Source of the DNA: a bacterium
GTDB taxonomy: Bacteria > Patescibacteriota > Minisyncoccia > Phycocordibacterales > JAUSHB01
Length of the DNA stretch: 64,000 bases
Assembly (NCBI GenBank): GCA_030648955.1
Contig: JAUSHB010000010.1
Location: 13,556 to 77,555, forward strand
Direction of reading: 5' to 3'
A program made the translations under genes and the position numbers. Under the pieces are notes generated by a model. The model was given only the letters and a program-made list of their open reading frames with translations. It was not told the origin of the DNA and did no database searches. Positions 470-57,316 of this stretch are shown here, one piece after another. The number at the start of each line of letters is the position of its first letter. Positions within the stretch are counted from its first letter, which is position 1.

Positions 470-1258
470 TCAAATTTTATAAGGTTGTGATAGGACTTCT
501 GTTGCCTGACGATAGTGCATATGTTTAAGAGGCTTGTCACTTAGCATTAAGTTCTTAAAATACGTATTCGATATTTCATGATTACCAAAATTATATTCGT
601 TATTTTTTGCACCTAAATTTCGTTCGGCAACATAGGCATCAACAACCATCTCAACTTTATGTAGCTCATTATTGTTAGCAAAAAAGGTATTATATTTTTT
701 ATCCTGCATTGGATGATATGTTTTGAACCCCTCCATTTTCATTGAAAATATCTGTTCTTCTGCACTATACGCATTTATTTTTACAAACGATTTATCGTTT
801 TCAATATCGATGGTAACTTTCTTATTAAACGTAGGGTATCCAAAAACATCTTTGGAATGTTGTATGCCGAGATCAGTGTTCATAATTAAAAGTAATGTAT
901 AAAAACCAAAGTTAGAAAACAAAGAATCAAAAAGCAATGGCAAGATAGGTATTTTCTTATCTATTGTGGATGGAACTGATAATGCAATTTCTCTGTAAGG
1001 TCCGACCGGAGCGTCCATGTAGTCAAAAACCGTCACCGCAAGTATGGCCACACCCGGAAAGATTTTCATCGGAAAGATTCTTTTATTCCCGATAAGTTGT
1101 TCTACCTTAGTGTAGGATGCAGGGAAAAAAGACATGGTTGCGGAAACTTTTCCGTAGACGGCGGGTACGTCTATCTCTACACCAGAAACATTTACAGAAT
1201 ATAATTTACTGATTTTTGGTCTCCTCAATATTAAACCCTGCTTATCTGTAAAACTCAT
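470..1258 (-). CDS. hypothetical protein (possibly an acetoacetate-decarboxylase-like fold)
   Basis: 262-aa ORF lying 2 nt upstream of the next minus-strand gene (operon-like). There is no firm motif; the ADC-like suggestion is weak. Confidence 0.5.
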   Translation of the reverse strand: MSFTDKQGLILRRPKISKLYSVNVSGVEIDVPAVYGKVSATMSFFPASYTKVEQLIGNKRIFPMKIFPGVAILAVTVFDYMDAPVGPYREIALSVPSTIDKKIPILPLLFDSLFSNFGFYTLLLIMNTDLGIQHSKDVFGYPTFNKKVTIDIENDKSFVKINAYSAEEQIFSMKMEGFKTYHPMQDKKYNTFFANNNELHKVEMVVDAYVAERNLGAKNNEYNFGNHEISNTYFKNLMLSDKPLKHMHYRQATEVLSQPYKI

Positions 1259-1394
1259 ATTTGTTAAATTACGACAAAATTTTTAACTTTCTTCCGATTG
1301 ACTTACAACATTATAAAAATCTGGTTGATTTTCATCATCATAGTATGCTTGATGGGTATATATAAGTATACCACTGAGTATGAGAGATGGTAAA

Positions 1395-1551
1395 AAAATA
1401 AAGGGGACTACGTTTGTAGTCCCCTTTTCACACTGCTGGTCATCGGTTAGATGTCCAGTTTGCCCTCCTTAGATCCCTTGACGAGAACCCGGAATTGGTC
1501 TTTTGACATTGCGATCGTATTGCCGAAGTCGTCGGTGACAACCACTTGCTT
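1395..1551. repeat. 157-bp direct repeat, copy A; one mismatch to copy B at 2579..2735
   Basis: The copy carries the hairpin AAAGGGGACTACGTTTGTAGTCCCCTTTT plus the last 35 codons (KQVVVTDDFGNTIAMSKDQFRVLVKGSKEGKLDI) of small gene 1447..1638. Confidence 0.9.
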
Positions 1552-1638
1552 ACCCGGATCAGCTGCGTCATCAAGATAGACTTCCGGACATTCCGGATCT
1601 TCGTGTGGGCATAATGTTATAAGGTGCTTTTTGCTCAT
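1447..1638 (-). CDS. small Cys-motif protein (CPHEDPECP), paralog of 2631..2897
   Basis: 63 aa with an N-terminal C-x5-C motif. Its C-terminal 35 aa are identical to the paralog. A perfect hairpin plus T-run terminator lies just downstream on the minus strand at 1398-1430. Confidence 0.5.
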   Translation of the reverse strand: MSKKHLITLCPHEDPECPEVYLDDAADPGKQVVVTDDFGNTIAMSKDQFRVLVKGSKEGKLDI

Positions 1639-1640
1639 AA

Positions 1641-2585
1641 ATGGCCTCCATTAAAGAGCTGGGTGTTGTCAAGACAATCTTAACAACTTCATTATTATAT
1701 TTCCAAATATTGCATAAAATGTCAAGTTCTTGTACACTAAGTGCATTAAAATCTCATGTTAAACATCTGGGACTCGTGCCTATAAAAAAAACATTAAAAA
1801 AAGACGGATTTAATAAGGACTATATTAAACTCGTCTATTCAACACTTCCCCAGAAACTTGCCGACCAGCAAGTTTCTTTCATAATCAAAAAATTTAAGTT
1901 AAAGAAAGGTATGAAAATTCTTGATGTTGGATGCGGTAATGGTAGACACTCTTTAGAGTTTGCACGGGAAGGATACTCAGTGACAGGAATTGATTCTTCG
2001 AAAGATTTGATTGTGCTTGCAAAGAGGAATGCCCGAAAAGAAAAACTAACTATTAAATTTACCCAAAAAGATATGCTGTCACTTCCCTTTATTGAAGAAT
2101 TTGACGCAGTTATAAGTATATTTTCATTTGGTTTTCTTACTAAAAGAGACAATCATAAAATTGCAGTGGGAAAGCTTGCCCGTTCACTGAAAAAGGGAGG
2201 AAGGCTAATACTAGCAACAGGAAATTCTTTATTAAAAATTAAAAACGCAAGAAAGAATTGGATAAAAAATAAAAAGACTAGCTTAATTACAAATATCTCA
2301 AAAAAAATATTAGGCGATGGAATAGTAACTACCACAAAAGAAGTAGTTGATATTGTGTCAATGAAACAAGTGGTTGAGAGCACGTGGAAAGAAGGCGGGA
2401 AGATACATGTGCTAATGTCAACGATGCATCTTTTTACGCCCAATGAGATAAAAAAAATATTAACTGAGAGTGGATTACGTGTCGTGGGCATGTGGAGTGA
2501 TTTTGATAATTCTCATTTCTCACATAATTCTAAAAAACTTATTATTTCAGCAATTAAAAAAGAGTTGCCAGATAATATTAAATAA
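1641..2585 (+). CDS. class I SAM-dependent methyltransferase
   Basis: Motif I is ILDVGCGNGRHS, followed by the acidic-loop and post-I motifs typical of the Rossmann-fold methyltransferase family. The true start is probably downstream (for example the ATG at 1719), because 1641 lies only 2 nt from the divergent minus-strand start. Confidence 0.75.
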   Translation: MASIKELGVVKTILTTSLLYFQILHKMSSSCTLSALKSHVKHLGLVPIKKTLKKDGFNKDYIKLVYSTLPQKLADQQVSFIIKKFKLKKGMKILDVGCGNGRHSLEFAREGYSVTGIDSSKDLIVLAKRNARKEKLTIKFTQKDMLSLPFIEEFDAVISIFSFGFLTKRDNHKIAVGKLARSLKKGGRLILATGNSLLKIKNARKNWIKNKKTSLITNISKKILGDGIVTTTKEVVDIVSMKQVVESTWKEGGKIHVLMSTMHLFTPNEIKKILTESGLRVVGMWSDFDNSHFSHNSKKLIISAIKKELPDNIK

Positions 2586-2735
2586 AGGGGACTACGTTTG
2601 TAGTCCCCTTTTCACACTGCTGGTCATCGGTTAGATGTCCAGCTTGCCCTCCTTAGATCCCTTGACGAGAACCCGGAATTGGTCTTTTGACATTGCGATC
2701 GTATTGCCGAAGTCGTCGGTGACAACCACTTGCTT
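2579..2735. repeat. 157-bp direct repeat, copy B
   Basis: Identical to 1395..1551 except for one base (ccagTttgcc versus ccagCttgcc). Confidence 0.9.
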
Positions 2736-2897
2736 TGTAGACTCTGCAGTGTTGTCCGTGAAAATCTGTGGGCAACCATCGCACTTATCACCACATAAGG
2801 TCATGACAAGTTGCTTTTCTTTGCTATTCATATAAAGAACCTCGCTTTGATCTGTTACCAGGACAATCCCAGCAACCCTATTTTTAATGTACAGCAT
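2631..2897 (-). CDS. small Cys-motif protein (CGDKCDGCP), paralog of 1447..1638
   Basis: 88-aa ORF (the start may be an internal Met). It has a C-x3-C-x2-C motif followed by the shared C-terminal 35 aa and the same terminator hairpin. Confidence 0.5.
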   Translation of the reverse strand: MLYIKNRVAGIVLVTDQSEVLYMNSKEKQLVMTLCGDKCDGCPQIFTDNTAESTKQVVVTDDFGNTIAMSKDQFRVLVKGSKEGKLDI

Positions 2898-3032
2898 GAA
2901 AAAATTATGTCAACAGGCAATGGAAAATGGGCGTACGTATGGAAAAAACAATTTAAAAAGGATAGCCGTAGAAATACTTTCGGTCGTAAAGAAGGAGGCG
3001 AGACTTGTGGATACAATAAAAATCTATCGTCG

Positions 3033-4238
3033 TTACGACAAAATTTTTAATTCCTTTCCAATTAATTCACAACACTTTATAAGATACGCGATTTGATCAT
3101 TTGAATGTGTTGACATAACTGTTAATCTAAGTCTTGCTCGATGTTTAGGAACCGCGGGCCATCTTACACAAGGAGCGTAGATACCTTTATCAAGCAACAT
3201 TCTCGAAAACTCAATTGCTTGTTCGTCTTCTCCTATTAACACAGGAACAATTTGAGTTTGACTCCCCAATGTATCAAAACCAAGTGTATTTAATTTTGCC
3301 CTTAAATCATCTGATTTTTTATTTAATAAAACCCTCAGATTAGGTTCTGATTCTATAACCTCTAGAGAAGTAATGAGTGAAGCTGACACAGCGGGCGGTA
3401 GAGCTGCTGAAAATATATATGGTCTGCTTGCTATTCTTAAATATTTGATTAAATTTTTACTTCCCACTACAAATCCGCCAACTGAAGATAGTGCCTTGCT
3501 ATGTGTTCCCATTACAATATCAACATCAGTAGTTGGTTTTAAGTTAAAGTGCTCAAGTGTGCCGTGGCCATTTTTTCCAATCACTCCGGTGGCATGCGCT
3601 TCATCTACCATCAATAAAGAATTATATTTTTTGCATAAAGTTACTATTTTATCTAAGGGTGCTATATCACCCTCCATACTAAATACACCGTCAGTTACAA
3701 CTAATTTTCTTCTGTGTTTAAATTTTTTGAGCTTCTTTTCTAAATCATTCATATCACAATGCTTATAGACGACGACTTTTTGTCCGCTCGCTTTTGCACC
3801 ATCAACGATACTTGCATGATTCAAATCATCGCTTAGTATGACGCTTCTTCTCCTAAAAAAATCATATGGTCCAACCTTGAAGGGATTCATGACGGCGGAA
3901 ATAACACCAAGATTCGTTTGATACCCCGTAGAAAAAACAATTGCGTCTTCTCCCCCTTTAAATTTAGCTATAGCTAGTTCATACTCTCTGTGTACCTGTA
4001 AATTTCCTGACAACATCCTAGAACCTCCTGACCCGACTCCGTATTTCTTTGTAGCTTCAATTGCGGCTGCAACAACTTTTGGGTGCGTAGCTAGTCCAAG
4101 ATAGTTATTTGAAGAAAACATCAGTACCTTTTTTCCATTTATGATAACTTCTGGTTCCGCAGCCCCATCAATTACATGCAAATCGGGATAGAGATGGTGC
4201 TCCTCCACATACTGCATAATATCTTCGATACGTTTCAT
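3033..4238 (-). CDS. PLP-dependent acyltransferase of the glycine C-acetyltransferase (KBL) / 8-amino-7-oxononanoate synthase family
   Basis: 401 aa with the class-II aminotransferase fold. The lysine motif GTHSKALSSVGG and the FSSNNYLGL region are typical of KBL/BioF/SPT enzymes. Confidence 0.85.
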   Translation of the reverse strand: MKRIEDIMQYVEEHHLYPDLHVIDGAAEPEVIINGKKVLMFSSNNYLGLATHPKVVAAAIEATKKYGVGSGGSRMLSGNLQVHREYELAIAKFKGGEDAIVFSTGYQTNLGVISAVMNPFKVGPYDFFRRRSVILSDDLNHASIVDGAKASGQKVVVYKHCDMNDLEKKLKKFKHRRKLVVTDGVFSMEGDIAPLDKIVTLCKKYNSLLMVDEAHATGVIGKNGHGTLEHFNLKPTTDVDIVMGTHSKALSSVGGFVVGSKNLIKYLRIASRPYIFSAALPPAVSASLITSLEVIESEPNLRVLLNKKSDDLRAKLNTLGFDTLGSQTQIVPVLIGEDEQAIEFSRMLLDKGIYAPCVRWPAVPKHRARLRLTVMSTHSNDQIAYLIKCCELIGKELKILS

Positions 4239-4283
4239 ATACTTTTTGGACTATATTAAAACAGTCAAAATGAGTCTACTACA

Positions 4284-4334
4284 CCCCCAGAATACCAAAA
4301 ATCCCCCGATTTTTCAATGGGTTTGTGGGGATAT
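4284..4334 (-). promoter_or_regulatory. R-repeat copy 1 (promoter/operator-like), 46 nt upstream of the kbl-like start
   Basis: The minus strand reads TTGAAA-17 nt-TATTCT, with the spacer palindrome AAAAATC-GGGG-GATTTTT. It is one of six copies. Confidence 0.5.
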
Positions 4335-4398
4335 TGAGTTTAAGCCCTTGCTTTTTATATTTCAGACCCCACATAATCAATATGTTATAATTAAACCT

Positions 4399-4830
4399 AT
4401 GAAATTAGAAAATATAAAATACTCGACGGATATCAAAGAACTCCAAGGATGTAAATTAGGAATTTTTTTTGAAGGATGGGAAATTAAACCTTCAGATCAA
4501 GTATTTCGGGATTCATTGAAAAATTCATATAAGGTTATTTGTGCCATCGACACAGAAAAAAATATGATCATTGGCTACATAACCGCTATTTCAGATGGCG
4601 TACTAAGTTCTTATATCCCCTTTCTTGAAGTTGATAAGCGCTACCAAAAACAAGGTATAGGTAGTGCTCTATTTAAAAAAATGCTCGAAGAATTAGGTGA
4701 ATTATACATGACCGACCTTGTTTGCGATGAAGAAAAAGCCGGCTTCTATGAGAAAGCCGGCATGATAAGATGGAACGCAATGATTATTCGTCGCTTTAAA
4801 CACCAAGGTGGTGTTCGGCGCAAGGATTAA
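4399..4830 (+). CDS. GNAT family N-acetyltransferase
   Basis: Acetyl-CoA binding motif QKQGIGSALFKKMLEEL. The ORF-track start at 4246 is an artefact of translating R-repeat copy 1; the first plausible ATG is at 4399 (MKLENIKY...). Confidence 0.7.
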   Translation: MKLENIKYSTDIKELQGCKLGIFFEGWEIKPSDQVFRDSLKNSYKVICAIDTEKNMIIGYITAISDGVLSSYIPFLEVDKRYQKQGIGSALFKKMLEELGELYMTDLVCDEEKAGFYEKAGMIRWNAMIIRRFKHQGGVRRKD

Positions 4831-4929
4831 GCAGCTACTTGGAGTGCCTTTTCAGCGTCCTTGAGGGTAATGTCCCCGTTGGCGAGTAGGCGTGCAAAAC
4901 TGAAGATGATGATTGATTCAAGCTGACTC

Positions 4930-5640
4930 TTGAACTCTTCTTCGTGGTTTTTGTGTTTTAGGCAACCTGAATTTGGAAGTCCTGCTTCCAAATTCACTCA
5001 AGTAGTTAAAAGCTTGAGGGACTTTTTTAAAAAATTATTAGTATATGATATGAATACATTTTTACATTCTCAAAATCCAAATATTAAACCGCTTGAATTT
5101 ATTGAGAAAGTTCTTAGTTTTTGTGATACAGGAAATGCTTTAGATCTAGGTGCTGGAACAGGGAGAAATGCAATATTCCTTGCGAAAAAAGGATTTAAGG
5201 TTGTTGCACTTGATTTATCTGGACAATCTGTGGATGAACTTACTCAATACTCTGCGCGTGAAGGTTTGTCATTGAAAACTTTCGTGTATAATCTTGCCAC
5301 AAATACACCTGATTTTTCAAATTACAACATAATTTTATTTACGTTTATACTCCATTATATTTCTAAGGAGAGAGGAGAAGAATTGATTGCTACTGCCCAA
5401 AAACAGGCTAACACGGGGACTATTCACGCGCTGGCTGTTATTACTACGGAAGGAGATTTTTTTGCTAAGGAAACCCAAAAGAAGAATTTTTATCTTGAAC
5501 CGGGGAATCTTGCAAAAAAATATGAGAAAGAGGGGTGGACAGTATTATCGTCGTTTGAAGAAAATCGGGCTATGGCAATAAAGAATGCGGATGGAACTCA
5601 GATGAAAAATTTGGTGTCATTTTTGATTGCAAGAAAATAA
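4930..5640 (+). CDS. SAM-dependent methyltransferase, TehB-like
   Basis: Motif LDLGAGTGRNAIFLAKKGFKVVALDLS. The start may be the internal ATG at 5050. Confidence 0.75.
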   Translation: MNSSSWFLCFRQPEFGSPASKFTQVVKSLRDFFKKLLVYDMNTFLHSQNPNIKPLEFIEKVLSFCDTGNALDLGAGTGRNAIFLAKKGFKVVALDLSGQSVDELTQYSAREGLSLKTFVYNLATNTPDFSNYNIILFTFILHYISKERGEELIATAQKQANTGTIHALAVITTEGDFFAKETQKKNFYLEPGNLAKKYEKEGWTVLSSFEENRAMAIKNADGTQMKNLVSFLIARK

Positions 5641-5690: not shown

Positions 5691-5717
5691 ACATAAAAAT
5701 TTTAACAAAGAATCTTA

Positions 5718-5768
5718 CCCCCAGAATACCAAAAATCCCCCGATTTTTCAATGGGTTTGTGGGGATAT
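5718..5768 (-). promoter_or_regulatory. R-repeat copy 2, between two convergent genes with no obvious target gene
   Basis: Identical to copy 1 over about 50 nt. Confidence 0.45.
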
Positions 5769-7832: not shown

Positions 7833-8048
7833 TTAGCGCAGGTCCTTAAGCGAAGAAAGCTTCTTCCCTTTTCCGTGTTCAAATTGCTCTCGGTCTCTTT
7901 TTAGAGACGCAGTAAAATTTCGTGCTTTTTGCTCACGCAAAAGATGGCGAAAAAATTCACTCGTGGAAGAAAACCCCCCTATCCTCACCTCTTTTCGGAT
8001 TTCTTTGGCGGTTATTTCGGGAACAGAAATATTAATGATGGTACGCAT
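7833..8048 (-). CDS. ribbon-helix-helix (CopG/ParD-like) DNA-binding protein
   Basis: 71 aa. ...TSEFFRHLLREQKA resembles RHH antitoxin/repressor sequences. Its stop lies 3 nt from the peptidase start. Confidence 0.5.
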   Translation of the reverse strand: MRTIINISVPEITAKEIRKEVRIGGFSSTSEFFRHLLREQKARNFTASLKRDREQFEHGKGKKLSSLKDLR

Positions 8049-8062
8049 GATTGTGTATTATT

Positions 8063-8083
8063 TTGTAATAATTTGTATTACAA
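8063..8083. promoter_or_regulatory. perfect 8-bp inverted repeat TTGTAATA-N5-TATTACAA overlapping the RHH gene start region
   Basis: It lies 15-35 nt upstream of the 8048 ATG and overlaps TATATT/TATTAT -10-like hexamers. This is a typical RHH autoregulation operator arrangement. Confidence 0.45.
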
Positions 8084-8147
8084 TATAATACTACCTTCGT
8101 AAGCAGATACTGTCAAGATGTATTATCTCTATACGTTCCAAATACCA

Positions 8148-8184
8148 AAAATTCCCCGGTTTTTCAATGACTTTGTGGGGATAT
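8148..8184 (-). promoter_or_regulatory. R-repeat copy 3 (variant), about 90 nt upstream of the RHH start
   Basis: ccaaataccaaaaattccccggtttttcaatgactttgtggggatat. Confidence 0.45.
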
Positions 8185-8288
8185 TGGAGTAGCTACATAT
8201 ACTGAAATTTTACTTGACAGTAATAGTCCGCATACTATATACTTAAAGCACTAAACGTGAACGGCATCCTATATGGGTGCCGTTCTTG

Positions 8289-8912
8289 TTATCTCCTTTT
8301 TAATCGTTCACGAAGATATTCAAAATCCCTAAAATTACTCCCGGCGAATTGACGAATTTCTTTTGCAGTTCTCGGCCCCCTCGCTAGAACAATAACCTCC
8401 TTTTTTATTTCTCTAAGATACTTAAGCACGGGCAAGAAATCACCATCACCAGAAAGTACGACGATGCGATCAAATTTATCTCGTTCCTTCATAAGATAAA
8501 ATGCCATATCTACATCACAGTTCGCTTTTCGTTTTGTTGTTCCATCTTCCTGGTCATACAACTTCACTGGCTTAAGGAATAATTGATACCCGAACTGTTC
8601 AAGTCTCAGGTAAAATCTTGTTCTTTGTAGGTGTCTACCGATCAAAAGAATGTCAGCCTCATTAAGTTCTTTTCCGCTGTTCTGCAATAATCCAAGAAGA
8701 TGTTTTTCGAGGGATTTTAGCGGAACGGTTTCATTTGTTTGATAATTATATTTAAAATTATGAACTTCAACACCTCCGAAGTAGAGTGTTTTCTTGACAT
8801 CATATTTTTCTTGTAGATACTCTAGTAGTTTTTCGTAATCTATCTTCCACCCTAAACTTTTTTCTCCACCATAAAAGAGATTTGACGCATCAATAAAAGC
8901 AAAAGTTTTCAT
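8289..8912 (-). CDS. NYN-domain (LabA-like, PIN-fold) protein
   Basis: FIDASNLFYGG ... VVLSGDGDFLPVLKYL matches the NYN / LabA family. Confidence 0.75.
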   Translation of the reverse strand: MKTFAFIDASNLFYGGEKSLGWKIDYEKLLEYLQEKYDVKKTLYFGGVEVHNFKYNYQTNETVPLKSLEKHLLGLLQNSGKELNEADILLIGRHLQRTRFYLRLEQFGYQLFLKPVKLYDQEDGTTKRKANCDVDMAFYLMKERDKFDRIVVLSGDGDFLPVLKYLREIKKEVIVLARGPRTAKEIRQFAGSNFRDFEYLRERLKRR

Positions 8913-8937
8913 AGCGAAAAATTATATACCCCCAAAA

Positions 8938-8987
8938 TACCAAAAATCCCCCGATTTTTCAATGCTTCCGTGGGGATAGGTAATTAA
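8938..8987 (-). promoter_or_regulatory. R-repeat copy 4, directly upstream of the NYN gene
   Basis: A TATATAAT element lies about 8 nt before the ATG, so the transcript is probably leaderless or has a very short leader. Confidence 0.5.
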
Positions 8988-9001
8988 GCACGTTAAATCG
9001 T

Positions 9002-9670
9002 CTAATCAATATCGAGTAGCGCTTGTTCGGTTTTTTGATATAGTGCAGTTAATTGTTTTTTGTTGTACATATGGGGGTATTTTGTATTAACGATTTTCAC
9101 GTTTTTTGCCAAAATATCATTTTTGAATAATTCCACCCATACTGCCTTATCATCACCTTTGGAAAAATAAATAAATAATTTATATCCTCGTATATTTTTT
9201 ACCATTTTTCTGATATCCAATTTAGCGAGGTCTCGCGCTAGGGTTTTACTGATATGAAATTTATTTAATTTATATAAATATTTTCCGGCGCTTTTGAGTG
9301 TCCTGTGCCCGTCTTTTGGTATCCATGGCGATGGCGACCAAAAGACAATTTTTTCGATACTTTTAGGGAGTCTTGATAGCATGAGAATGCTCGACCCAAA
9401 ACTATGGCCGATTATATACACGTGCTTATATTGTTTTCTGCGTGCATAATGCGCAAGAAAATGATTAACTCTTTCTATAATTCTCTTTATGTCTTGATGC
9501 AACTTCGTTTTGCCATCATAAAGCGTCAACGAAACAATGTCGCATTTATACTTAATTCTACTTAAGGGGGTAATAATTTCACTCAACGCATTCGTCATCA
9601 ACCCGGGCAAGATAATAATCAGTCGTTGATTATTGTTTGTAGTTTTCAAATAATATTCCTGATTTTTCAT
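9002..9670 (-). CDS. alpha/beta hydrolase
   Basis: Nucleophile elbow GHSFGS; 222 aa. Confidence 0.65.
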   Translation of the reverse strand: MKNQEYYLKTTNNNQRLIIILPGLMTNALSEIITPLSRIKYKCDIVSLTLYDGKTKLHQDIKRIIERVNHFLAHYARRKQYKHVYIIGHSFGSSILMLSRLPKSIEKIVFWSPSPWIPKDGHRTLKSAGKYLYKLNKFHISKTLARDLAKLDIRKMVKNIRGYKLFIYFSKGDDKAVWVELFKNDILAKNVKIVNTKYPHMYNKKQLTALYQKTEQALLDID

Positions 9671-9699
9671 TAATTCTATTTACTTAAAAATATCAAAAA

Positions 9700-9728
9700 T
9701 TAAGGGCTGTAATTATTACAGCCCTTAA
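9700..9728. terminator. perfect palindrome TTAAGGGCTGTAAT-T-ATTACAGCCCTTAA
   Basis: 14-bp stem located between the 9738 stop and the 9670 start. Confidence 0.6.
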
Positions 9729-9737
9729 TCAGAAGGT

Positions 9738-9992
9738 TCACTTTAGATTGAAATCGCCGTTTTTTACTCCCTTGATGAAAAGATCCCATTCCTTGGGAGA
9801 AAAAAGTGCTGTGATCTTTTGGGAATCGTTTGTATTACGCACCACGATAACATCATGCCGCTGTGCGACACCAACACAGGTTTTAATCCCCCAACAGATA
9901 ACGGTACCCTGGGGAGCAACGAAATCTGAATCCTTCAGGCCTTTTGCTGCACGCTGTAATTTGTCCATGAAACGATCACGAGTTTTCGCCAT
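9738..9992 (-). CDS. DUF397-like small protein
   Basis: KTCVGVAQRHDVIVVRNTNDSQKITALFSPKEWDLFIKGVKNGDF matches the DUF397 pattern C-V-x-V-A ... V-R-[DN]-[ST]-xD ... F-[ST]-x-x-EW-x-F-[IL]-x-G-[VA]-K-x-G-[ED]-F. Confidence 0.55.
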   Translation of the reverse strand: MAKTRDRFMDKLQRAAKGLKDSDFVAPQGTVICWGIKTCVGVAQRHDVIVVRNTNDSQKITALFSPKEWDLFIKGVKNGDFNLK

Positions 9993-10026
9993 AATGAATC
10001 TCCTTAAATTTTCAAGATCAAATGCT

Positions 10027-10066
10027 ACTAACGACCGTTAATAGCTCTGTTGTTAGAATACATCAC
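10027..10066 (-). promoter_or_regulatory. conserved 5' element M, copy 1 (shared with 13475..13515)
   Basis: ACTAACGAccGTTAATAGCTCTGT-N5-AGAATACAT lies 34 nt upstream of the 9992 ATG. The second copy has the same geometry upstream of 13445. Confidence 0.5.
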
Positions 10067-10190
10067 CGTTTTAATTCGGTCAAGCAAAATTGCAAATTAC
10101 GAAACTAGAGGGAGATTTTGATCTCCATGAACGATAGCGGATAAAAAGATCCGCAATACTAGAAACTGCAAGCAAAATATGTTGCATGTA

Positions 10191-10240
10191 CACCCTAAAA
10201 ATACCAAAAATCCACTCGTTTTTCAACCCCGTGGTAGTCC
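10191..10240 (-). promoter_or_regulatory. R-repeat copy 5 (degenerate)
   Basis: ataccaaaaatccactcgtttttcaaccccgtggtagtcc. Confidence 0.35.
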
Positions 10241-10259
10241 ACACTGGGCAGATTATTAC

Positions 10260-10514
10260 TTACGCATACAACGTATGAGAACCGACATCCATAAAATATA
10301 CTTTTTTCTTGTGTAGTTTTATAATAATTCGATAAGCAAAATTCACAGAAAAAGCATGGTATTTTTTTAATTTTCCGTGCAATTTATGGAGTTTTATTTC
10401 CCCCTCGTTCTTTTTATTTTTAAACAACGCAACAGTGCGATAACAATCATCTTGGACCGCGGGAGATAATTTTCGAAAGGAACGCAAGAATCTGGCGGTA
10501 TAAAGATATTCCAT
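10260..10514 (-). CDS. type II toxin, RelE/ParE superfamily (YafQ-like)
   Basis: LHKLHGKLKKYHAFSVNFAYRIIIKLHKKKVYFMDVGSHTLY fits the RelE/YafQ C-terminal signature. It overlaps the upstream antitoxin by its start and stop codons. Confidence 0.7.
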   Translation of the reverse strand: MEYLYTARFLRSFRKLSPAVQDDCYRTVALFKNKKNEGEIKLHKLHGKLKKYHAFSVNFAYRIIIKLHKKKVYFMDVGSHTLYA

Positions 10515-10516
10515 TA

Positions 10517-10738
10517 TTACTTACTTCGTCCCGCTAATTTTTTGAGATCGCCCTTATAGACACGTCCTGTTTTAATATCGTTTTCCGCCTCCTGTATCCG
10601 CAAAAGTATCCGTTCTTCGCGAAGACGCTCGAGAGCAAACCGCACGAGATGCGCCTTGCTCTCACTTGTTCCCTGTGCAAGCTCCTCCTCAATAAAATTC
10701 TCGAGGTCTTTATTGATGGGTATGGTAATGGTAGTCAT
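10517..10738 (-). CDS. type II antitoxin, RHH/ParD-like
   Basis: 73 aa, ...SKAHLVRFALERLREE..., sitting immediately upstream of the toxin. Confidence 0.65.
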   Translation of the reverse strand: MTTITIPINKDLENFIEEELAQGTSESKAHLVRFALERLREERILLRIQEAENDIKTGRVYKGDLKKLAGRSK

Positions 10739-10792
10739 ATACTATATCTTAGTACTATATTATAGTAATTGCAAGTCAATAAAAGTGGTTCT

Positions 10793-10849
10793 CTGGAGAT
10801 ACCAAAAATCCCCAGATTTTTCAATGCTTCCGCGGGATACCGCCTATCA
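10793..10849 (-). promoter_or_regulatory. R-repeat copy 6, about 55 nt upstream of the antitoxin start
   Basis: ctggagataccaaaaatccccagatttttcaatgcttccgcgggatacc. Confidence 0.45.
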
Positions 10850-21047: not shown

Positions 21048-24000
21048 CTAATACCCGACCAGTAACTGTCCTTTGTCTGTCATCACCGTAACCACCGCAA
21101 TTCCCGGCTTTGATATTTTTATTTTTTTACTTTTTCCCTCTTCAACCTCATCCACAATCTTGGTTTCGTTGATTGCTTGTTTATATTTCGTTTCAATTTT
21201 GCGCATATCCTTAAGATGAATTTCTTGAGAGAGTGACTTTAGTATATCATTTTTGAATTTCCATTCATATTCGAGTGTTGTTTTTGGTGTTGCTGTGGCA
21301 ATGCCATTGTAGATGATCGTATTAAAAACAACCTTAATTTCCGTGGGTTCTTCTTCGTACTCAAGGAAAGGGATGTTGGTTGTGTTGCCTGCTTCGTCGG
21401 TAATCGTGGTGCTGGTTGCGGTGGTGTTTACCGTAGTGGATGAGAGATTATCGATGCCCGTGATAAAAAATTTGTTGGCAGCGGGGTCAAAAGTAAAACG
21501 TGCTTCTGGTGGGGTTGCATCATAGATAGTGGTACCGCCAAGAGTTGGTTTAAGTGTGGAATCGATTGTGTTATCGTTGTTGAAATCAATCGCGAGTGTA
21601 GTCGTAGTTGAAAGTACTCCTGTCCATGTAAGAGTCACTTGTGTGGTTGTAGCAGTGGGAATAGCTTCGTAGGTGGTGGAAGCCATGACAATGTCGCCAC
21701 GAAGCTCTTCAAGGTCAAGAGTGAACGAACCTGAAGCGTAGGCATCAAGTTTTACGGTATGCAAAGTATCGGCAGAAACAATGATAATTTTGGTATCACC
21801 AAGAGTGTAGTAAGTACTACCCTTGATGCCTTCTTCAATCAATCCCGTGGTCGTCGAGATACCAGTATGGTTGCCTGCTTGGTCATAGATGTTGAGGTTG
21901 AGGGGTGAATGAAGTTGATACTTGATATATGGTTTTGTGGAGACAAGTAATGAAGAATCATTGGTAATATATTGTTCAGGGGTCGAACTGCTTATGACAA
22001 TCGAATGGATGAAGGAGCGAAGGGGATCAACTTCAAGAATATTTTTGTGCTCACGGTCAATTGTTGATGTTAAATTGTTATACTTTCCCAAATCCACCCA
22101 CCACTTTTGCGTCATTGAAGAAGTCGGCATGAGATGCGCGCTTTCTTCCACCACTGTTTTGTCGCCGTTTAACGTTACCTTATCTTGAATTTTAATGACA
22201 TCAACATATCTCTCACAAATAATTGGTTGTGGTGCGCCGATTGTTTGCGGTGTCGATGGGGGATCTCTGGGGATACATACTTTATTCTTTTCGTAACGAA
22301 TCACCGCGGGAGTATATATCCCCCACCCTGCGATTTCATAAACCATAGTCGATGTGGCAGGAGTCCATTGGTCGAGCGTCGCGTGGATTGTTTCGGCGTT
22401 TGAAAGCAGGGTTGAATTTCCAATCGCAGGAGAAGAAAGATCGTCATAGGCAGGTACAGCCCGTCCGTCACCGCCCGTGAGATAATCTGCAAGCTCATCA
22501 TAGGTGTCGATGGTATCGCCATAACGTGCTGAGATTACGGGACTCACTGCGTTTCCTCCAAACTCAATGAGCGGCGTTGAGGAGCCGATGTATGCACGCG
22601 ATGGAAGGAGATTGTATCCCGTTGGCATATTGTGCAAAAGGTCACGAACGCGCTCCGCATCCATGAGAAAACCTAATGGACCAAGACTTCCGCCATGAAG
22701 AAGCTGGCCGACAGTGTCAGGCGTTCCTGCTTGGGGAACGGCGACAAAAATAACATTGTCGATTCTGTCGTAGAGGGGGTCGTTGGCCTCCTTCAGTTTT
22801 TGAATGAGCGCCTTGGTGACGAGTCCACCGTTTGAATGCGCAACGATGGTGACCTTTTGGGTCTTCGACGAATCCGCGAGTATTTTCAACTGCTTGTATA
22901 GGTAACTATTTGTGAACCCTTGCGGGGTACTGTATGAAATCCCGTCAGTTGATGTTGCGCCATTCTGAAGAATATCCTCGAGTGAGAGCCGCCAATCGTA
23001 TGCGATCATAGAGTAATCGTTGATGATGTGATCGGCTTCTTTCCACTTCTTGAGGTCGTTTATAAACGATTGGTAAATATTGGAAGCATATACTTCATCA
23101 ATAACACCAGCGGTGCCTTCTTTTGTGTATAACGAGTTAATGCTCTTCCCTGCTCCATTGAGTACGAGGCGTTGGTGATTGCAGTCCAGTATTGAAACCC
23201 AGCGTTCTTTTTCATTGTTAAATACTCCACAATCGCTGCTTTTTTCAAACAGTCTTGATCCCATCATCCCCGGCAAAAACAGAACGTTGGAATAACAGTC
23301 GGCGGTGCAGGGAGGGGGTATATTGTTCCACCCATCTTGTGTTGTCCACGGAAGATTATCCTGCCCGCCATAAAAAATATATGGCGAATCGCAGAAGTTG
23401 TCGTTATTTGAATCACTACAACCCTCTGCTGTCGTATCAAAGTTACTCCAGTAGTTGCCACCGATTGATGGGGTGAGATTAAAAACATTACCGTTGCCAC
23501 CATTGACACGAGCCTGCGTAAAGTTGCCGATAAGATTGTTGTTGTAAACTTGGTTGTTGTTGGAAGAGAATAGATAGATTCCGTAAACGTTATTGTTTGA
23601 TGCAGTGTTGTTTGTCAGAATGTTGTTACTGGATAAGGAAAATAAGATTCCATAAAAGTTGTTCCCTAACACAGTGTTGTTTGTCAGTGTGTTATTGTTT
23701 GAGGAACCATAGAGGAGAATTCCGGAGTTGTTGTTTGATGCGATATTGTTTGTCAGAACGTTATTGCTACTGGAAGAGTCGAGATAGATTCCAGAGTTAT
23801 TGTTTGAGGAATTTACGTTCGCAATTGTGGATGAGCTTGTTTGTATGAGAAATAAGCCGTTGTTTTTCTTCGTTATCGAACCGTCAATTGTGATATTGTT
23901 TATATTTGAACCGCCGGCGTTGCACAGTATCAATTCAGAAAAAGTTTCATTACTTAAGGTAACCGCGCTGTTGAAGTATCTGATTGGTCTCCCGCCGGAA

Positions 24001-24977
24001 CCAATAGTGTTGGTAATACTGTTGTCACAATGGCTATCTGACGATACTTGAACATGAAGGTCGTCGGAAGAGTTTTCCTGCGCAACATTGTTCATCAGAA
24101 TATTATTACTGGAAAAGTAGAGGTAGATTCCAAAACCATTTGAACTCGCGGTATTGTTGGTTAAAGTGTTGTTGTTACTAAGATATCCAAGAAAGATTCC
24201 GTAACTATTTGAGGTCGTAGTGTTGTTGGTTAAAGTGTTGTTGGATCCACGGAGTAAGATTCCATTCAAAAATTTCTTAACATTTAAATTCTTGATAGTA
24301 ACGCCAGTCCTTCCAGAAAATCCGGAAAGATAGACACCGTTTCCCGTATTGCTCCCGGTTAACATGTGGCTGTTGCCGTCAAGCGTTATGCCATTGCTGT
24401 CGATCTGAATGGTCTCGGTTAAATCCACATTCAGTGTGCAGGTTTTAATAGCGGAATCCCAGTTGCCAATCAAAGTGCAATCGCCGCCAGTGGCATCATC
24501 ACGAATGAACTTGGTGCTTTTGTGGGTTTGGATAAAGACAATGTGGGGAGTTGAAATGTCTTGCGTGTATGAATATGCGCCGTTTTCGTCAGTGGTAAAT
24601 TGAGTCAGGTTGTGATAATTGTCTTCATATTTATAGTAAGTGGTTGAGGTAGTAAAACCATAAAGGGTGATCTGGGTTGAGGTTGCAATTAAAAGAGCGG
24701 GCGACTCAATCGTCATTGTTACCATGTTGGGAACCGACTCCATTCTAAGTTTGATTACTTCTGTGCTGTCTAAACTGATATTTAAATATGCGCTGTCGGT
24801 GATAGAAAAGTTTGCGCTCGTACCTTCTACGACGCCTGATCGTGTCGATGGTTCAAACGATGGCAACTCTTGAGCTCTTGCGCGATCAGCGAATAAGAAT
24901 ACCCCTGCGACAAAAACCGCCGCAAGTACAAGATGGGGCGCAAAGAAAAACTGTGATTTTAGGTTCGATATATTCAT
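21048..24977 (-). CDS. giant secreted multi-domain protein: signal peptide, parallel beta-helix repeats, lipase-like alpha/beta hydrolase, C-terminal beta-rich domains
   Basis: Signal peptide MNISNLKSQFFFAPHLVLAAVFVAGVFLFADRARA. Repeated N-N-x-[TL]-x-N-N-T-A-S-N-N / GIYL units indicate a right-handed beta-helix. The motif VLFLPGMMGSRL ... VTIVAHSNGGLV is a G-H-S-x-G nucleophile elbow of the PGAP1/LCAT-like lipase type. The C-terminal 400 aa are Thr-rich and Ig-like. Confidence 0.8.
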   Translation of the reverse strand: MNISNLKSQFFFAPHLVLAAVFVAGVFLFADRARAQELPSFEPSTRSGVVEGTSANFSITDSAYLNISLDSTEVIKLRMESVPNMVTMTIESPALLIATSTQITLYGFTTSTTYYKYEDNYHNLTQFTTDENGAYSYTQDISTPHIVFIQTHKSTKFIRDDATGGDCTLIGNWDSAIKTCTLNVDLTETIQIDSNGITLDGNSHMLTGSNTGNGVYLSGFSGRTGVTIKNLNVKKFLNGILLRGSNNTLTNNTTTSNSYGIFLGYLSNNNTLTNNTASSNGFGIYLYFSSNNILMNNVAQENSSDDLHVQVSSDSHCDNSITNTIGSGGRPIRYFNSAVTLSNETFSELILCNAGGSNINNITIDGSITKKNNGLFLIQTSSSTIANVNSSNNNSGIYLDSSSSNNVLTNNIASNNNSGILLYGSSNNNTLTNNTVLGNNFYGILFSLSSNNILTNNTASNNNVYGIYLFSSNNNQVYNNNLIGNFTQARVNGGNGNVFNLTPSIGGNYWSNFDTTAEGCSDSNNDNFCDSPYIFYGGQDNLPWTTQDGWNNIPPPCTADCYSNVLFLPGMMGSRLFEKSSDCGVFNNEKERWVSILDCNHQRLVLNGAGKSINSLYTKEGTAGVIDEVYASNIYQSFINDLKKWKEADHIINDYSMIAYDWRLSLEDILQNGATSTDGISYSTPQGFTNSYLYKQLKILADSSKTQKVTIVAHSNGGLVTKALIQKLKEANDPLYDRIDNVIFVAVPQAGTPDTVGQLLHGGSLGPLGFLMDAERVRDLLHNMPTGYNLLPSRAYIGSSTPLIEFGGNAVSPVISARYGDTIDTYDELADYLTGGDGRAVPAYDDLSSPAIGNSTLLSNAETIHATLDQWTPATSTMVYEIAGWGIYTPAVIRYEKNKVCIPRDPPSTPQTIGAPQPIICERYVDVIKIQDKVTLNGDKTVVEESAHLMPTSSMTQKWWVDLGKYNNLTSTIDREHKNILEVDPLRSFIHSIVISSSTPEQYITNDSSLLVSTKPYIKYQLHSPLNLNIYDQAGNHTGISTTTGLIEEGIKGSTYYTLGDTKIIIVSADTLHTVKLDAYASGSFTLDLEELRGDIVMASTTYEAIPTATTTQVTLTWTGVLSTTTTLAIDFNNDNTIDSTLKPTLGGTTIYDATPPEARFTFDPAANKFFITGIDNLSSTTVNTTATSTTITDEAGNTTNIPFLEYEEEPTEIKVVFNTIIYNGIATATPKTTLEYEWKFKNDILKSLSQEIHLKDMRKIETKYKQAINETKIVDEVEEGKSKKIKISKPGIAVVTVMTDKGQLLVGY

Positions 24978-26428: not shown

Positions 26429-26450
26429 GGTTAAACCAATATTAAAGTTA

Positions 26451-37604: not shown

Positions 37605-37740
37605 GATAATTCAAAATGTAAATATCAAAATGTAAAATTACAGTTTAAAATTTAAAGACAAGGAAGGATTGTGCTGTTTTTCTTTTTGAATTTTCATTTG
37701 TGATTTTAAACTTTGATTTTTTAATTTGTTGTAACAGAAT
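37605..37740. repeat. AT-rich palindromic element (family copy ii) upstream of the MgtC gene
   Basis: CAAAATGTAAAT direct repeats on one arm, and the reverse complement of AAAAAATCAAAGTTTAAAATC at 37703-37721 on the other arm. Confidence 0.5.
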
Positions 37741-56684: not shown

Positions 56685-57184
56685 GCTTTTGCGCTAGAGG
56701 ATTTTCTAATAAGATCCAGAATGATACTTCCCGCAATAACTGCGATCGTATAGTATAGCATCACCTCAAAATATGAATATGACTTCGCATTGGTAAGAAA
56801 AACTCCAACAATCAGAGCTCCATACCATGATACAAAAGAAAATGCACTTCCCCAATAGAGAGAAATTTTATGCGCCTGAAGGAGGAGCGCATTAGCGGCA
56901 ATAACAATGACAATAGTGAGTTTTGCCCAGAGAAGTGGATTATAAAGTTTGAATGCCTGCCCGTTCAGCTGATAGTAAAGAAGAAACCCGAAACCAGAAA
57001 GAAGGGCGAGGATGAGACCCACTCGCACTACTGTGAATGTTGTTTTAAGAAAATCACCTTCTACAGGGTCTACATGACCATCTCTAAGTGATTTGGTAAG
57101 AAAGATTTCAATAAACGTTGCCCCGCCTACACCGAGAACGGTTCCAATGAGATGAACGATGACGAGAAATATATAAATGTCCAT
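56681..57184 (-). CDS. membrane protein (hypothetical)
   Basis: 167 aa with 5 TM segments; its start overlaps the stop of the next gene by 4 nt. Confidence 0.45.
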   Translation of the reverse strand: MDIYIFLVIVHLIGTVLGVGGATFIEIFLTKSLRDGHVDPVEGDFLKTTFTVVRVGLILALLSGFGFLLYYQLNGQAFKLYNPLLWAKLTIVIVIAANALLLQAHKISLYWGSAFSFVSWYGALIVGVFLTNAKSYSYFEVMLYYTIAVIAGSIILDLIRKSSSAKA

Positions 57185-57316
57185 GTTATAAAATCAAAGT
57201 TTAAAAATCAAAGTGCAAAATGGCATTGTAAAATTTAAAATTTTAGAGACCTTTCCCTTTTATTTTGCATTTTTAATTGTCATTTTTAATTTTGATATTT
57301 ACATTTTACATTTTTC
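57185..57316. repeat. AT-rich palindromic element (family copy iii) between copZ and the membrane-protein operon
   Basis: Arm 1 AAAATCAAAGTTTAAAAATCAAAGTGCAAAATGGCATTGTAAAATTTAAAATTTT. Arm 2 TTTTGCATTTTTAATTGTCATTTTTAATTTTGATATTTACATTTTACATTTTT is roughly its reverse complement. Confidence 0.5.

Follow-up and report, generated by a model that had tools for sequence, protein, structure and literature searches.

A near-identical direct repeat flanking a methyltransferase gene as a probable trace of homogenization between old, linked paralogues

We analyzed a 64,000-nucleotide stretch of the genome of a bacterium of the phylum Patescibacteriota (assembly GCA_030648955.1, contig JAUSHB010000010.1, positions 13,556 to 77,555), referred to here as the window. 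Near its start, two small minus-strand genes, which we call sA and sB, lie on either side of a gene for a class I S-adenosylmethionine (SAM)-dependent methyltransferase and end in nearly the same DNA. We consider it probable that sA and sB are old paralogues whose 3ʹ half, together with the terminator, was recently homogenized by non-reciprocal recombination, that is, by gene conversion in the broad sense. A first-pass annotation of this DNA had proposed either a recent duplication-insertion or ongoing gene conversion. Recent recombination of the second kind is still the best explanation for a near-identity that is confined to the 3ʹ half and the terminator, whereas recent duplication is contradicted by the divergence of the 5ʹ halves and by the same-type orthologues that each N-terminal half has elsewhere.

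The repeat and the two paralogues

The repeat is a single direct one. A repeat search and a base-by-base comparison align positions 1396–1551 (copy A) with 2580–2735 (copy B), and 155 of the 156 nt are identical. A near-perfect repeat of this length within 64 kb is not explicable by chance, and comparison with the flanks shows that identity falls to background just beyond both borders. The only internal difference, t at 1461 and c at 2645, corresponds to AAA and AAG on the coding strand and is synonymous (Lys60). The near-identity and the single mismatch had been recognized in the first-pass annotation, which set the repeat at 157 bp, starting at 1395 and 2579. The repeat itself stands, but that left border does not: the extra base is a mismatch (a at 1395, t at 2579).

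Both copies encode the last 34 codons (counted initially as 35) and the stop codon of a minus-strand small open reading frame (ORF), with the product ending in KQVVVTDDFGNTIAMSKDQFRVLVKGSKEGKLDI. They also hold 51 nt of 3ʹ untranslated region with a hairpin and a U-run, so the description of each copy as a terminator plus the 3ʹ end of a small gene is otherwise correct. Copy A carries the end of sA; copy B has the equivalent content for sB and, in addition, the last codon and TAA stop of the methyltransferase gene (2583–2585). The hairpin consists of AAAGGGGACTAC, a 4-nt loop and GTAGTCCCCTTT, giving a 12-bp stem followed by a T-run on the minus strand. Its computed free energy is −20.4 kcal/mol (z = −3.8), and none of 200 shuffled sequences folds equally well. 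A stable GC-rich stem, a U-run and a location 19 nt past the stop codon of each small gene are the features of a Rho-independent terminator. A terminator scan places that of sA at 1400–1427 on the minus strand, where the stem and loop are followed by AUUUUUUUAC. The identical hairpin past sB (2584–2611, minus strand) has, by the same scan and by base comparison, a U-run shortened at the repeat border (AUUUAAUAUU); it faces the convergent methyltransferase gene at its 3ʹ end and may be a bidirectional terminator. The sequences beyond the outer border are not homologous (GGTAAAAA versus ATAATATT). As had been noted at the outset, the 1028 bases between the copies contain the 5ʹ part of sA, an intergenic spacer and the plus-strand methyltransferase gene, and nothing else.

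The sA gene (1447–1638, minus strand) encodes a protein of 63 amino acids (aa) that matches the family profile described below and has the loop C10-P-H-E-D-P-E-C17-P; it is preceded by the ribosome-binding site GGAGG. The sB gene (2631–2831, minus strand) encodes 66 aa with the loop C-G-D-K-C-D-G-C-P. The two N-terminal motifs, CPHEDPECP and CGDKCDGCP, are thus as first reported. A word-index search retrieved only the two genes themselves, which NCBI lists as the hypothetical proteins Q7S11_01815 (sA) and Q7S11_01825. The NCBI call for sB, which begins at ATG 2897 and gives 88 aa (P0002), is probably too long. On the evidence of the family alignment and of a GAGG ribosome-binding site, we prefer ATG 2831. 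A promoter-like site upstream of sB (2886–2913, minus strand; TTGACA-16-TACATT) is a consensus match only, with agreement at 10 of 12 positions.

Small genes of this kind have two N-terminal types. The H type, which includes sA, has the motif C-x-H-x-x-P-x-C-P, and the C type, which includes sB, has C-G-D-K-C-x-G-C-P or C-D-D-G-W-x-C-K-x-C-P. H-type and C-type genes are adjacent in five other metagenomic loci (L083, L084, L086, L116 and L117). Relatives therefore carry both types side by side with diverged DNA, a pattern that the first-pass annotation had itself set against a recent duplication. Between sA and sB, identity in the 5ʹ half is 49% for DNA and 30% for protein. In an all-against-all comparison, each of the 12 N-terminal halves had its best match in a half of the same type from a different genome. 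The N-terminal half of sA shares 43–52% protein identity with the H-type genes of all five loci, and that of sB shares 52–57% with the C-type genes of L084, L083 and L117, but only 28–36% with those of L086 and L116, which are more divergent. On these comparisons, sA and sB are ancient linked paralogues, not recent duplicates.

Within the pairs of the five other loci, the 3ʹ halves are just 60–68% identical in DNA, which marks the 99.4% identity between the two copies in the window as a derived and recent state. The same 3ʹ half in the window is 56–68% identical in DNA to any orthologue. Pairs of two C-like genes also occur (L124–126), with 3ʹ halves that are 31% alike in protein. At the protein level, an excess of within-genome similarity between 3ʹ halves is found in L083, L084 and L086 but not in L116, L117 or L124; at the DNA level, it is found only in the window. 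We rejected a long-lasting, general concerted evolution of the pair, since DNA-level homogenization occurs in no other genome and the protein-level excess is limited to some loci.

Routes to the repeat

How might the repeat have arisen? We propose that one paralogue received, by non-reciprocal copying from the other, a 156-bp block that begins at the first codon of the conserved core (KQV...), takes in the stop codon and ends with the terminator. The inner border falls on that same codon (K30-Q-V...) and resembles a homologous junction, because the paralogues regain recombination-level similarity there. The outer border lies just past the terminator, between unrelated flanks, and in copy B it abuts the coding end of the methyltransferase gene and truncates the U-run; since flanking homology is absent, it resembles an illegitimate junction. 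The event would combine one homologous and one illegitimate junction, and the copying was probably linked to a local rearrangement that placed the methyltransferase gene between the small genes. The gene order C-type, methyltransferase, H-type occurs in none of the relatives found. Once a rearrangement had separated the small genes, each would have needed a terminator of its own.

The position of the inner border also bears on the consequences of the exchange. The type-specific Cys/His loop, between strands 1 and 2 of the predicted fold, lies outside the copied block. In the half that the two proteins share (strands 3 and 4 and the helix), the family shows no residues specific to either type, and the swap was hence probably neutral. 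This natural swap shows that either type can carry the same C-terminal half; hence, the part that distinguishes them lies in the Cys/His loop. The better U-run of copy A is a weak hint that copy A was the donor. In relatives, H-type and C-type 3ʹ halves lie at the same distance from the common half, and for this reason the donor could not be identified from it.

Several points weigh against gene conversion, even in the broad sense. Classical gene conversion requires homology on both sides of the tract. Homologous flanks are present at the inner border (the KQV...DDFG core), but the flanks at the outer border are unrelated. In L116, L117 and L124, 3ʹ halves are equally alike within and between genomes. 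A search for an empty site, anchored on the protein of the neighboring bioF-like gene, found its closest relative in Ca. Komeilibacteria, at 61% identity and with no synteny downstream, so that it gave no orthologous site, empty or filled, from which to read the ancestral arrangement or the direction of copying. A mixed population is possible, including a deletion variant in which the middle segment has been lost from some cells. Finally, a duplication coupled to rearrangement, with a hybrid-gene junction, fits equally well.

In this last alternative, the unit was first duplicated or transposed locally, and the H-type and C-type genes then underwent unequal crossing-over in their conserved 3ʹ halves. 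The starting arrangement would have been that of L084, methyltransferase(−) H(+) C(+) terminator, or that of L117, C H methyltransferase. The product would be C-terminator / methyltransferase / H5ʹ::C3ʹ-terminator, and the repeat would be the duplicated 3ʹ half and terminator of one gene. Such a history would suit a gene order unlike that of every relative found, an inner border exactly at the start of the conserved core, and an outer border that lacks homology, cuts the U-run of the terminator and provides the stop codon of the methyltransferase gene. It would also suit the 3ʹ half-domains that have been duplicated or fused alone elsewhere in the family (P0064, P0126, P0134, P0141 and P0148). 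However, two or three successive events would be required from any arrangement seen in relatives, and no intermediate was found. On present data, its outcome looks the same as that of a conversion patch. We regard this route as rather unlikely.

Could the repeat be a product of assembly? An independent assembly of the same sequencing run (SRR13727527), the Logan contigs with k = 31, was found by exact-protein look-up. Its contigs map to the window up to 1425 (L002), at 1522–2609 (L115) and at 2706–4312 (L001). Each extends exactly 30 nt (k − 1) into the repeat, breaking at the repeat borders, which indicates that all four repeat junctions are genuine branch points in the reads. The look-ups found genes of this genome only in the Logan contigs of SRR13727527, and no second sample with a variant locus. 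If the repeat were an artifact of assembly or of population structure, the genome would have one repeat copy, and a 1.18-kb segment with the methyltransferase gene and the 5ʹ part of sA would come from another strain or from a circular or tandem form. The assembler would have joined flank-repeat-flank and the separate segment through their common 156 bp. The topology of the de Bruijn graph is indeed identical for flank-repeat-middle-repeat-flank and for flank-repeat-flank plus a loop, and the Logan contigs are interrupted at all four junctions. Nonetheless, the reads contain all four junction contexts. With 66 nt between the synonymous difference and one border and 91 nt between it and the other, reads or large k-mers can link each copy to the flanks that belong to it, and the deposited assembly assigns different alleles to the two copies. 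A 1.2-kb circle without a replication function is implausible, and relatives lead one to expect both gene types and the methyltransferase together. An artifact by either route is therefore very improbable.

The methyltransferase and its surroundings

The methyltransferase gene (1716–2585, plus strand) is divergent from sA and convergent with sB. Its start is uncertain, with ATG 1641, ATG 1716 and an in-frame GTG at 1776 as candidates. The Rossmann-type SAM-binding domain of the product scores above Pfam thresholds (Methyltransf_25, E 7.6e-23 and 81.5 bits; Methyltransf_31, 74.7 bits; Methyltransf_11, 72.6 bits). The scores for NCBIfam equivalogs are below the cut-offs: 67.9 bits for CpaM (cut-off 180), 68 for the daptide methyltransferase (175) and 53.9 for TehB (303). 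With no score above a curated NCBIfam cut-off, identity with TehB, ArsM, UbiE or another named equivalog was rejected.

Linkage of this gene to the small genes is not peculiar to the window. Full-length orthologues adjoin the H/C pair in L084, in divergent orientation (37% identity, E 1e-54), and in L117, in the same direction (39% identity, E 8e-64). The complete set of H-type gene, C-type gene and orthologous methyltransferase gene is thus present in at least three lineages. Other class I methyltransferase subfamilies are encoded directly downstream of single or fused members of the small-gene family in seven further loci (L088, L093, L096, L098, L099/L090, L091 and L127), which makes nine distinct low-GC loci in addition to the window. 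The small gene has no methyltransferase gene beside it in any of the high-GC (actinobacterial) loci. Judged by this gene order, the methyltransferase is a conserved neighbor of the small-gene pair, not inserted cargo as the duplication-insertion proposed at first would have it.

According to that proposal, the insertion of a methyltransferase cassette duplicated one small gene, the 5ʹ ends later diverged, and the cargo can still be excised. Direct repeats do flank the methyltransferase gene, and 156 bp of homology are sufficient for RecA-mediated deletion. Moreover, the 1.7-kb module as a whole is bracketed by a 78% repeat of a bioF-like 3ʹ end and was possibly acquired. However, identity jumps without a gradient from 49% in the 5ʹ halves to 99.4% in the 3ʹ halves, orthologues of the same type exist for each 5ʹ half in five other loci, methyltransferase orthologues stand beside the pair elsewhere, and there is no recombinase, terminal inverted repeat, or phage or plasmid match. 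We give this scenario almost no credence. The region 1259–3100 has no recombinase or transposase ORF, and its sole inverted repeat is the terminator hairpin. Searches gave no match in plasmid or phage DNA and no Rfam family, and viral contigs gave just a partial match of 21 residues.

A mobile cassette, whether an insertion sequence, a miniature inverted-repeat transposable element, an integron cassette or an integrative element, was likewise rejected: a recombinase and terminal inverted repeats are lacking, and the flanking repeat consists of coding sequence and a terminator. Deletion of the methyltransferase gene by homologous recombination across the 156 bp is possible but unsupported, and its excision would break up a conserved module. 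The case carries a general caution, namely that direct repeats flanking a gene do not alone mark a mobile cassette.

A second methyltransferase gene, TehB-like, lies at 4930–5640 (plus strand), 2.3 kb from the module. Its product is most similar to the small-gene-linked enzymes of L099 and L091 (34.5% identity, E 7e-24), which hints that the region from 1.3 to 5.7 kb may be functionally connected.

The module is itself nested within a second repeat. An intact gene for a BioF/Kbl-family pyridoxal phosphate-dependent acyltransferase occupies 3033–4238 on the minus strand (C-terminus CCELIGKELKILS; Aminotran_1_2, E 8e-69; TIGR00858 bioF, 438 bits against a cut-off of 426). This gene's final 14 codons (3033–3082) recur as a direct repeat of 78% identity at 1269–1318, a minus-strand remnant of a bioF/kbl-like 3ʹ end that terminates in CCKSIGRKLKILS and a stop codon. 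Together, the two copies bracket the whole 1.7-kb module (1319–3032). Just downstream of the remnant is an ADC-like gene (470–1258, minus strand; weak acetoacetate decarboxylase similarity, PF06314 E 0.004, below the cut-off). Its start lies 10 nt past the remnant's stop codon, which suggests that the bioF-like and ADC-like genes once formed an operon. From this layout, the module looks as though it sits inside a disrupted bioF-like/ADC-like operon, with the displaced 3ʹ end left as a dead remnant. This suggests that the whole module was acquired as a unit, perhaps via recombination with a donor in which a diverged bioF-like gene was adjacent. Such an acquisition fits the differing genomic neighborhoods of the module in L084, L117 and L124–126.

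The window contains three further sets of repeats. Six direct repeats of 52 nt (4283–4334, 5717–5768, 8133–8184, 8928–8979, 10192–10243 and 10790–10841), the first two of them 100% identical, have the invariant core ATACCAAAAATC-N5-ATTTTTCAA and no match in Rfam. On the minus strand they read TTGAAA-17 nt-TGnTATTCT, flagged by a scan as an extended −10 promoter in four of the six, with a 7-bp palindrome in the spacer. Five lie 45–200 nt upstream of minus-strand genes (bioF-like, RHH, NYN, DUF397 and an antitoxin/RelE-like pair); the other points antisense into the TehB-like methyltransferase gene. By position and motif, they look like a common promoter/operator module heading small accessory genes. 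A run of such genes occupies 7833–10738 on the minus strand and comprises an RHH gene (7833–8048), an NYN-domain gene (8289–8912), an alpha/beta hydrolase gene (9002–9670), a DUF397 gene, and a gene for a RelE/ParE-like toxin (10260–10514) with an antitoxin-like gene upstream (10517–10738). Tandem repeats of 69 nt, or 23 codons, 61–84% identical, are found at 23553–23759 and 24125–24243 inside a 1309-aa ORF (21048–24977, minus strand), which presumably encodes a protein with repetitive domains. AT-rich repeats of the type AAAATCAAAGTTTAAAA, both direct and inverted, lie in intergenic regions at 26438, 37608–37724, 57176–57312 and 60925; one inverted pair extends over 49 nt with 82% complementarity.

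The small-protein family and known systems

A HMMER search with a two-sequence profile of the small proteins found 145 representatives of 50%-identity clusters (E ≤ 1e-3), most of them 60–80 aa long. A 36-member profile found 1,964 representatives of 90%-identity clusters, many from Actinomycetota (Streptomyces, Pseudonocardia and Nonomuraea). No Pfam or NCBIfam model matched the family. In its alignment, Cys17-Pro18 and Asp36-Asp37-Phe38 are invariant, and Cys10, Met44, Ser45 and Gln48 nearly so. The small Cys-loop genes are hence a genuine family of about 2,000 members, none of them characterized. An AlphaFold model of sA built with the family alignment (predicted local distance difference test, pLDDT, 94; predicted template modeling score, pTM, 0.77) has four strands followed by a C-terminal helix, with the Cys pair placed in the loop between strands 1 and 2. 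A Foldseek comparison of the model with the PDB gave nothing significant, and no solved structure is related to the family by sequence. Some members carry an extra copy of the C-terminal half-domain alone (xDDFGxxxxMSxxQ) or are fusions of two whole domains (P0064, P0126, P0134, P0141, P0148 and P0008; loci L090 and L099). By sequence, then, the half-domain copied in the window is a unit of duplication elsewhere in the family as well. A model of one natural two-domain fusion, P0148, was unreliable (pLDDT 57–68 in domain 1, pTM 0.54).

What is the functional significance of these small proteins? The analysis exposes a recurrent module, of one or two small Cys-loop proteins and a class I methyltransferase, in which the small proteins belong to a family with no Pfam model and a confident predicted fold. 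With low confidence, we infer from the gene context that the methyltransferase and the small proteins work jointly. The Actinomycetota loci have neighbors of another kind. A 292-aa DsbD_2 membrane protein is encoded by a gene that overlaps or nearly abuts the small gene (L120–122 and L108); in L120–L122 this gene (4001–5082) starts 2 nt past the small-gene stop. The C-terminal ~80 residues of the DsbD_2 protein have a weak homologue (29.5%, E 7e-5) at 1469–1870 of L099, beside a pair of small gene and methyltransferase gene. Other neighbors are an HMA protein with a P-type ATPase (L105) and a Dyp peroxidase (L114). These neighbors appear to give the Actinomycetota loci a thiol/metal theme. Taken with the adjacency to methyltransferases and with an invariant Cys pair accompanied by extra Cys/His residues in a surface loop, this theme leads us to guess, again with little confidence, that the small protein may be a partner or carrier that handles a thiol-bound or metal(loid) substrate, or else an adaptor subunit comparable to Trm112.

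A more specific version of this idea is speculative, and we think it doubtful. The H-type and C-type proteins could form a hetero-dimeric, PC4/PUR-like adaptor whose two Cys/His loops make up a composite thiol/metal(loid) site, and which serves class I methyltransferases, in the window the enzyme encoded at 1716–2585, as an obligatory partner subunit or as a methyl-acceptor carrier. Under the same reading, and with equally slight expectation on our part, the partners in other phyla would be DsbD_2/cupredoxin-type membrane proteins. If the adaptor reading were true, the copied half would be the dimerization half, and occasional conversion would keep the interface matched while leaving the loops distinct. 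The family would then represent a new and widespread class of methyltransferase accessory proteins, with about 2,000 clusters.

The family resembles several known systems in part. The predicted fold, of four strands and a helix, appears akin to that of PC4, YdbC, PUR repeats and Whirly proteins, which bind single-stranded nucleic acid. The model thus raises nucleic-acid binding as an alternative function. The existence of small-protein pairs and fusions is relevant to the dimeric or two-repeat assembly of PC4, PUR and Whirly proteins. Like Trm112, the small proteins are Cys-motif proteins of about 60 aa encoded beside several class I SAM methyltransferase subfamilies, an analogy of gene context only. 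Membership among Trm112-like activators was rejected, as the Pfam model Trm112p gave no match to the small proteins at E ≤ 1 and their predicted fold is different.

DUF397 (PF04149) comprises small proteins of Actinomycetota, for example BldB and those of XRE-DUF397 pairs (PMC10364602, PMC10294661). The small proteins are similar to these in size (60–90 aa), in a Cys ahead of a short strand (C-P-E-V in the small proteins, C-V-E-V in DUF397) and in the C-terminal motif S/T..(Q/E)(F/W)..(F/L)(V/I)..(A/V)K.G.(L/F)D. Actinobacteria contribute many members of the family, and some members carry the name DUF397 in UniRef. However, beside the small genes lie genes for methyltransferases or DsbD_2/HMA proteins, not for XRE/WhiJ regulators. 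The Pfam DUF397 model, with its gathering threshold of 24 bits, matched neither sA, sB and 36 members (E ≤ 1) nor eight more (E ≤ 10), four of which UniRef names DUF397. An hhalign comparison of the family alignment with the one DUF397 protein of the window, a single-sequence comparison, aligned 23 C-terminal residues with 10% probability. These comparisons do not establish membership in DUF397: the Pfam score falls short, the profile comparison is weak, and the likeness is limited to the motif of the C-terminal helix. The window's own DUF397 protein is an 84-aa protein (9738–9992, minus strand) that passes the Pfam model at 26.7 bits; at its C-terminus it has a motif similar to the one in sA and sB. 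DUF397 is unusual in a low-GC genome of the candidate-phyla type, the family being mainly actinobacterial. A search for relatives of this protein found one near-identical sequence, from the query's own cluster only.

Gene conversion and concerted evolution are known between bacterial paralogues such as the duplicated tuf genes and the rRNA operons (surveyed in PMC6053082). The window differs from these cases in that its tract consists of half of a 190-bp gene and a terminator, has an outer border without flanking homology, coincides with a gene order absent in relatives, and is homogenized at the DNA level in this genome only. As in the tuf and rRNA cases, however, the paralogues are far closer to each other over the tract than to their orthologues, the switch to old divergence at the border is sharp, and the tract begins where homology between the paralogues begins. 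Seen in this way, the repeat reflects an ordinary kind of event, the partial homogenization of linked paralogues (compare PMC6053082).

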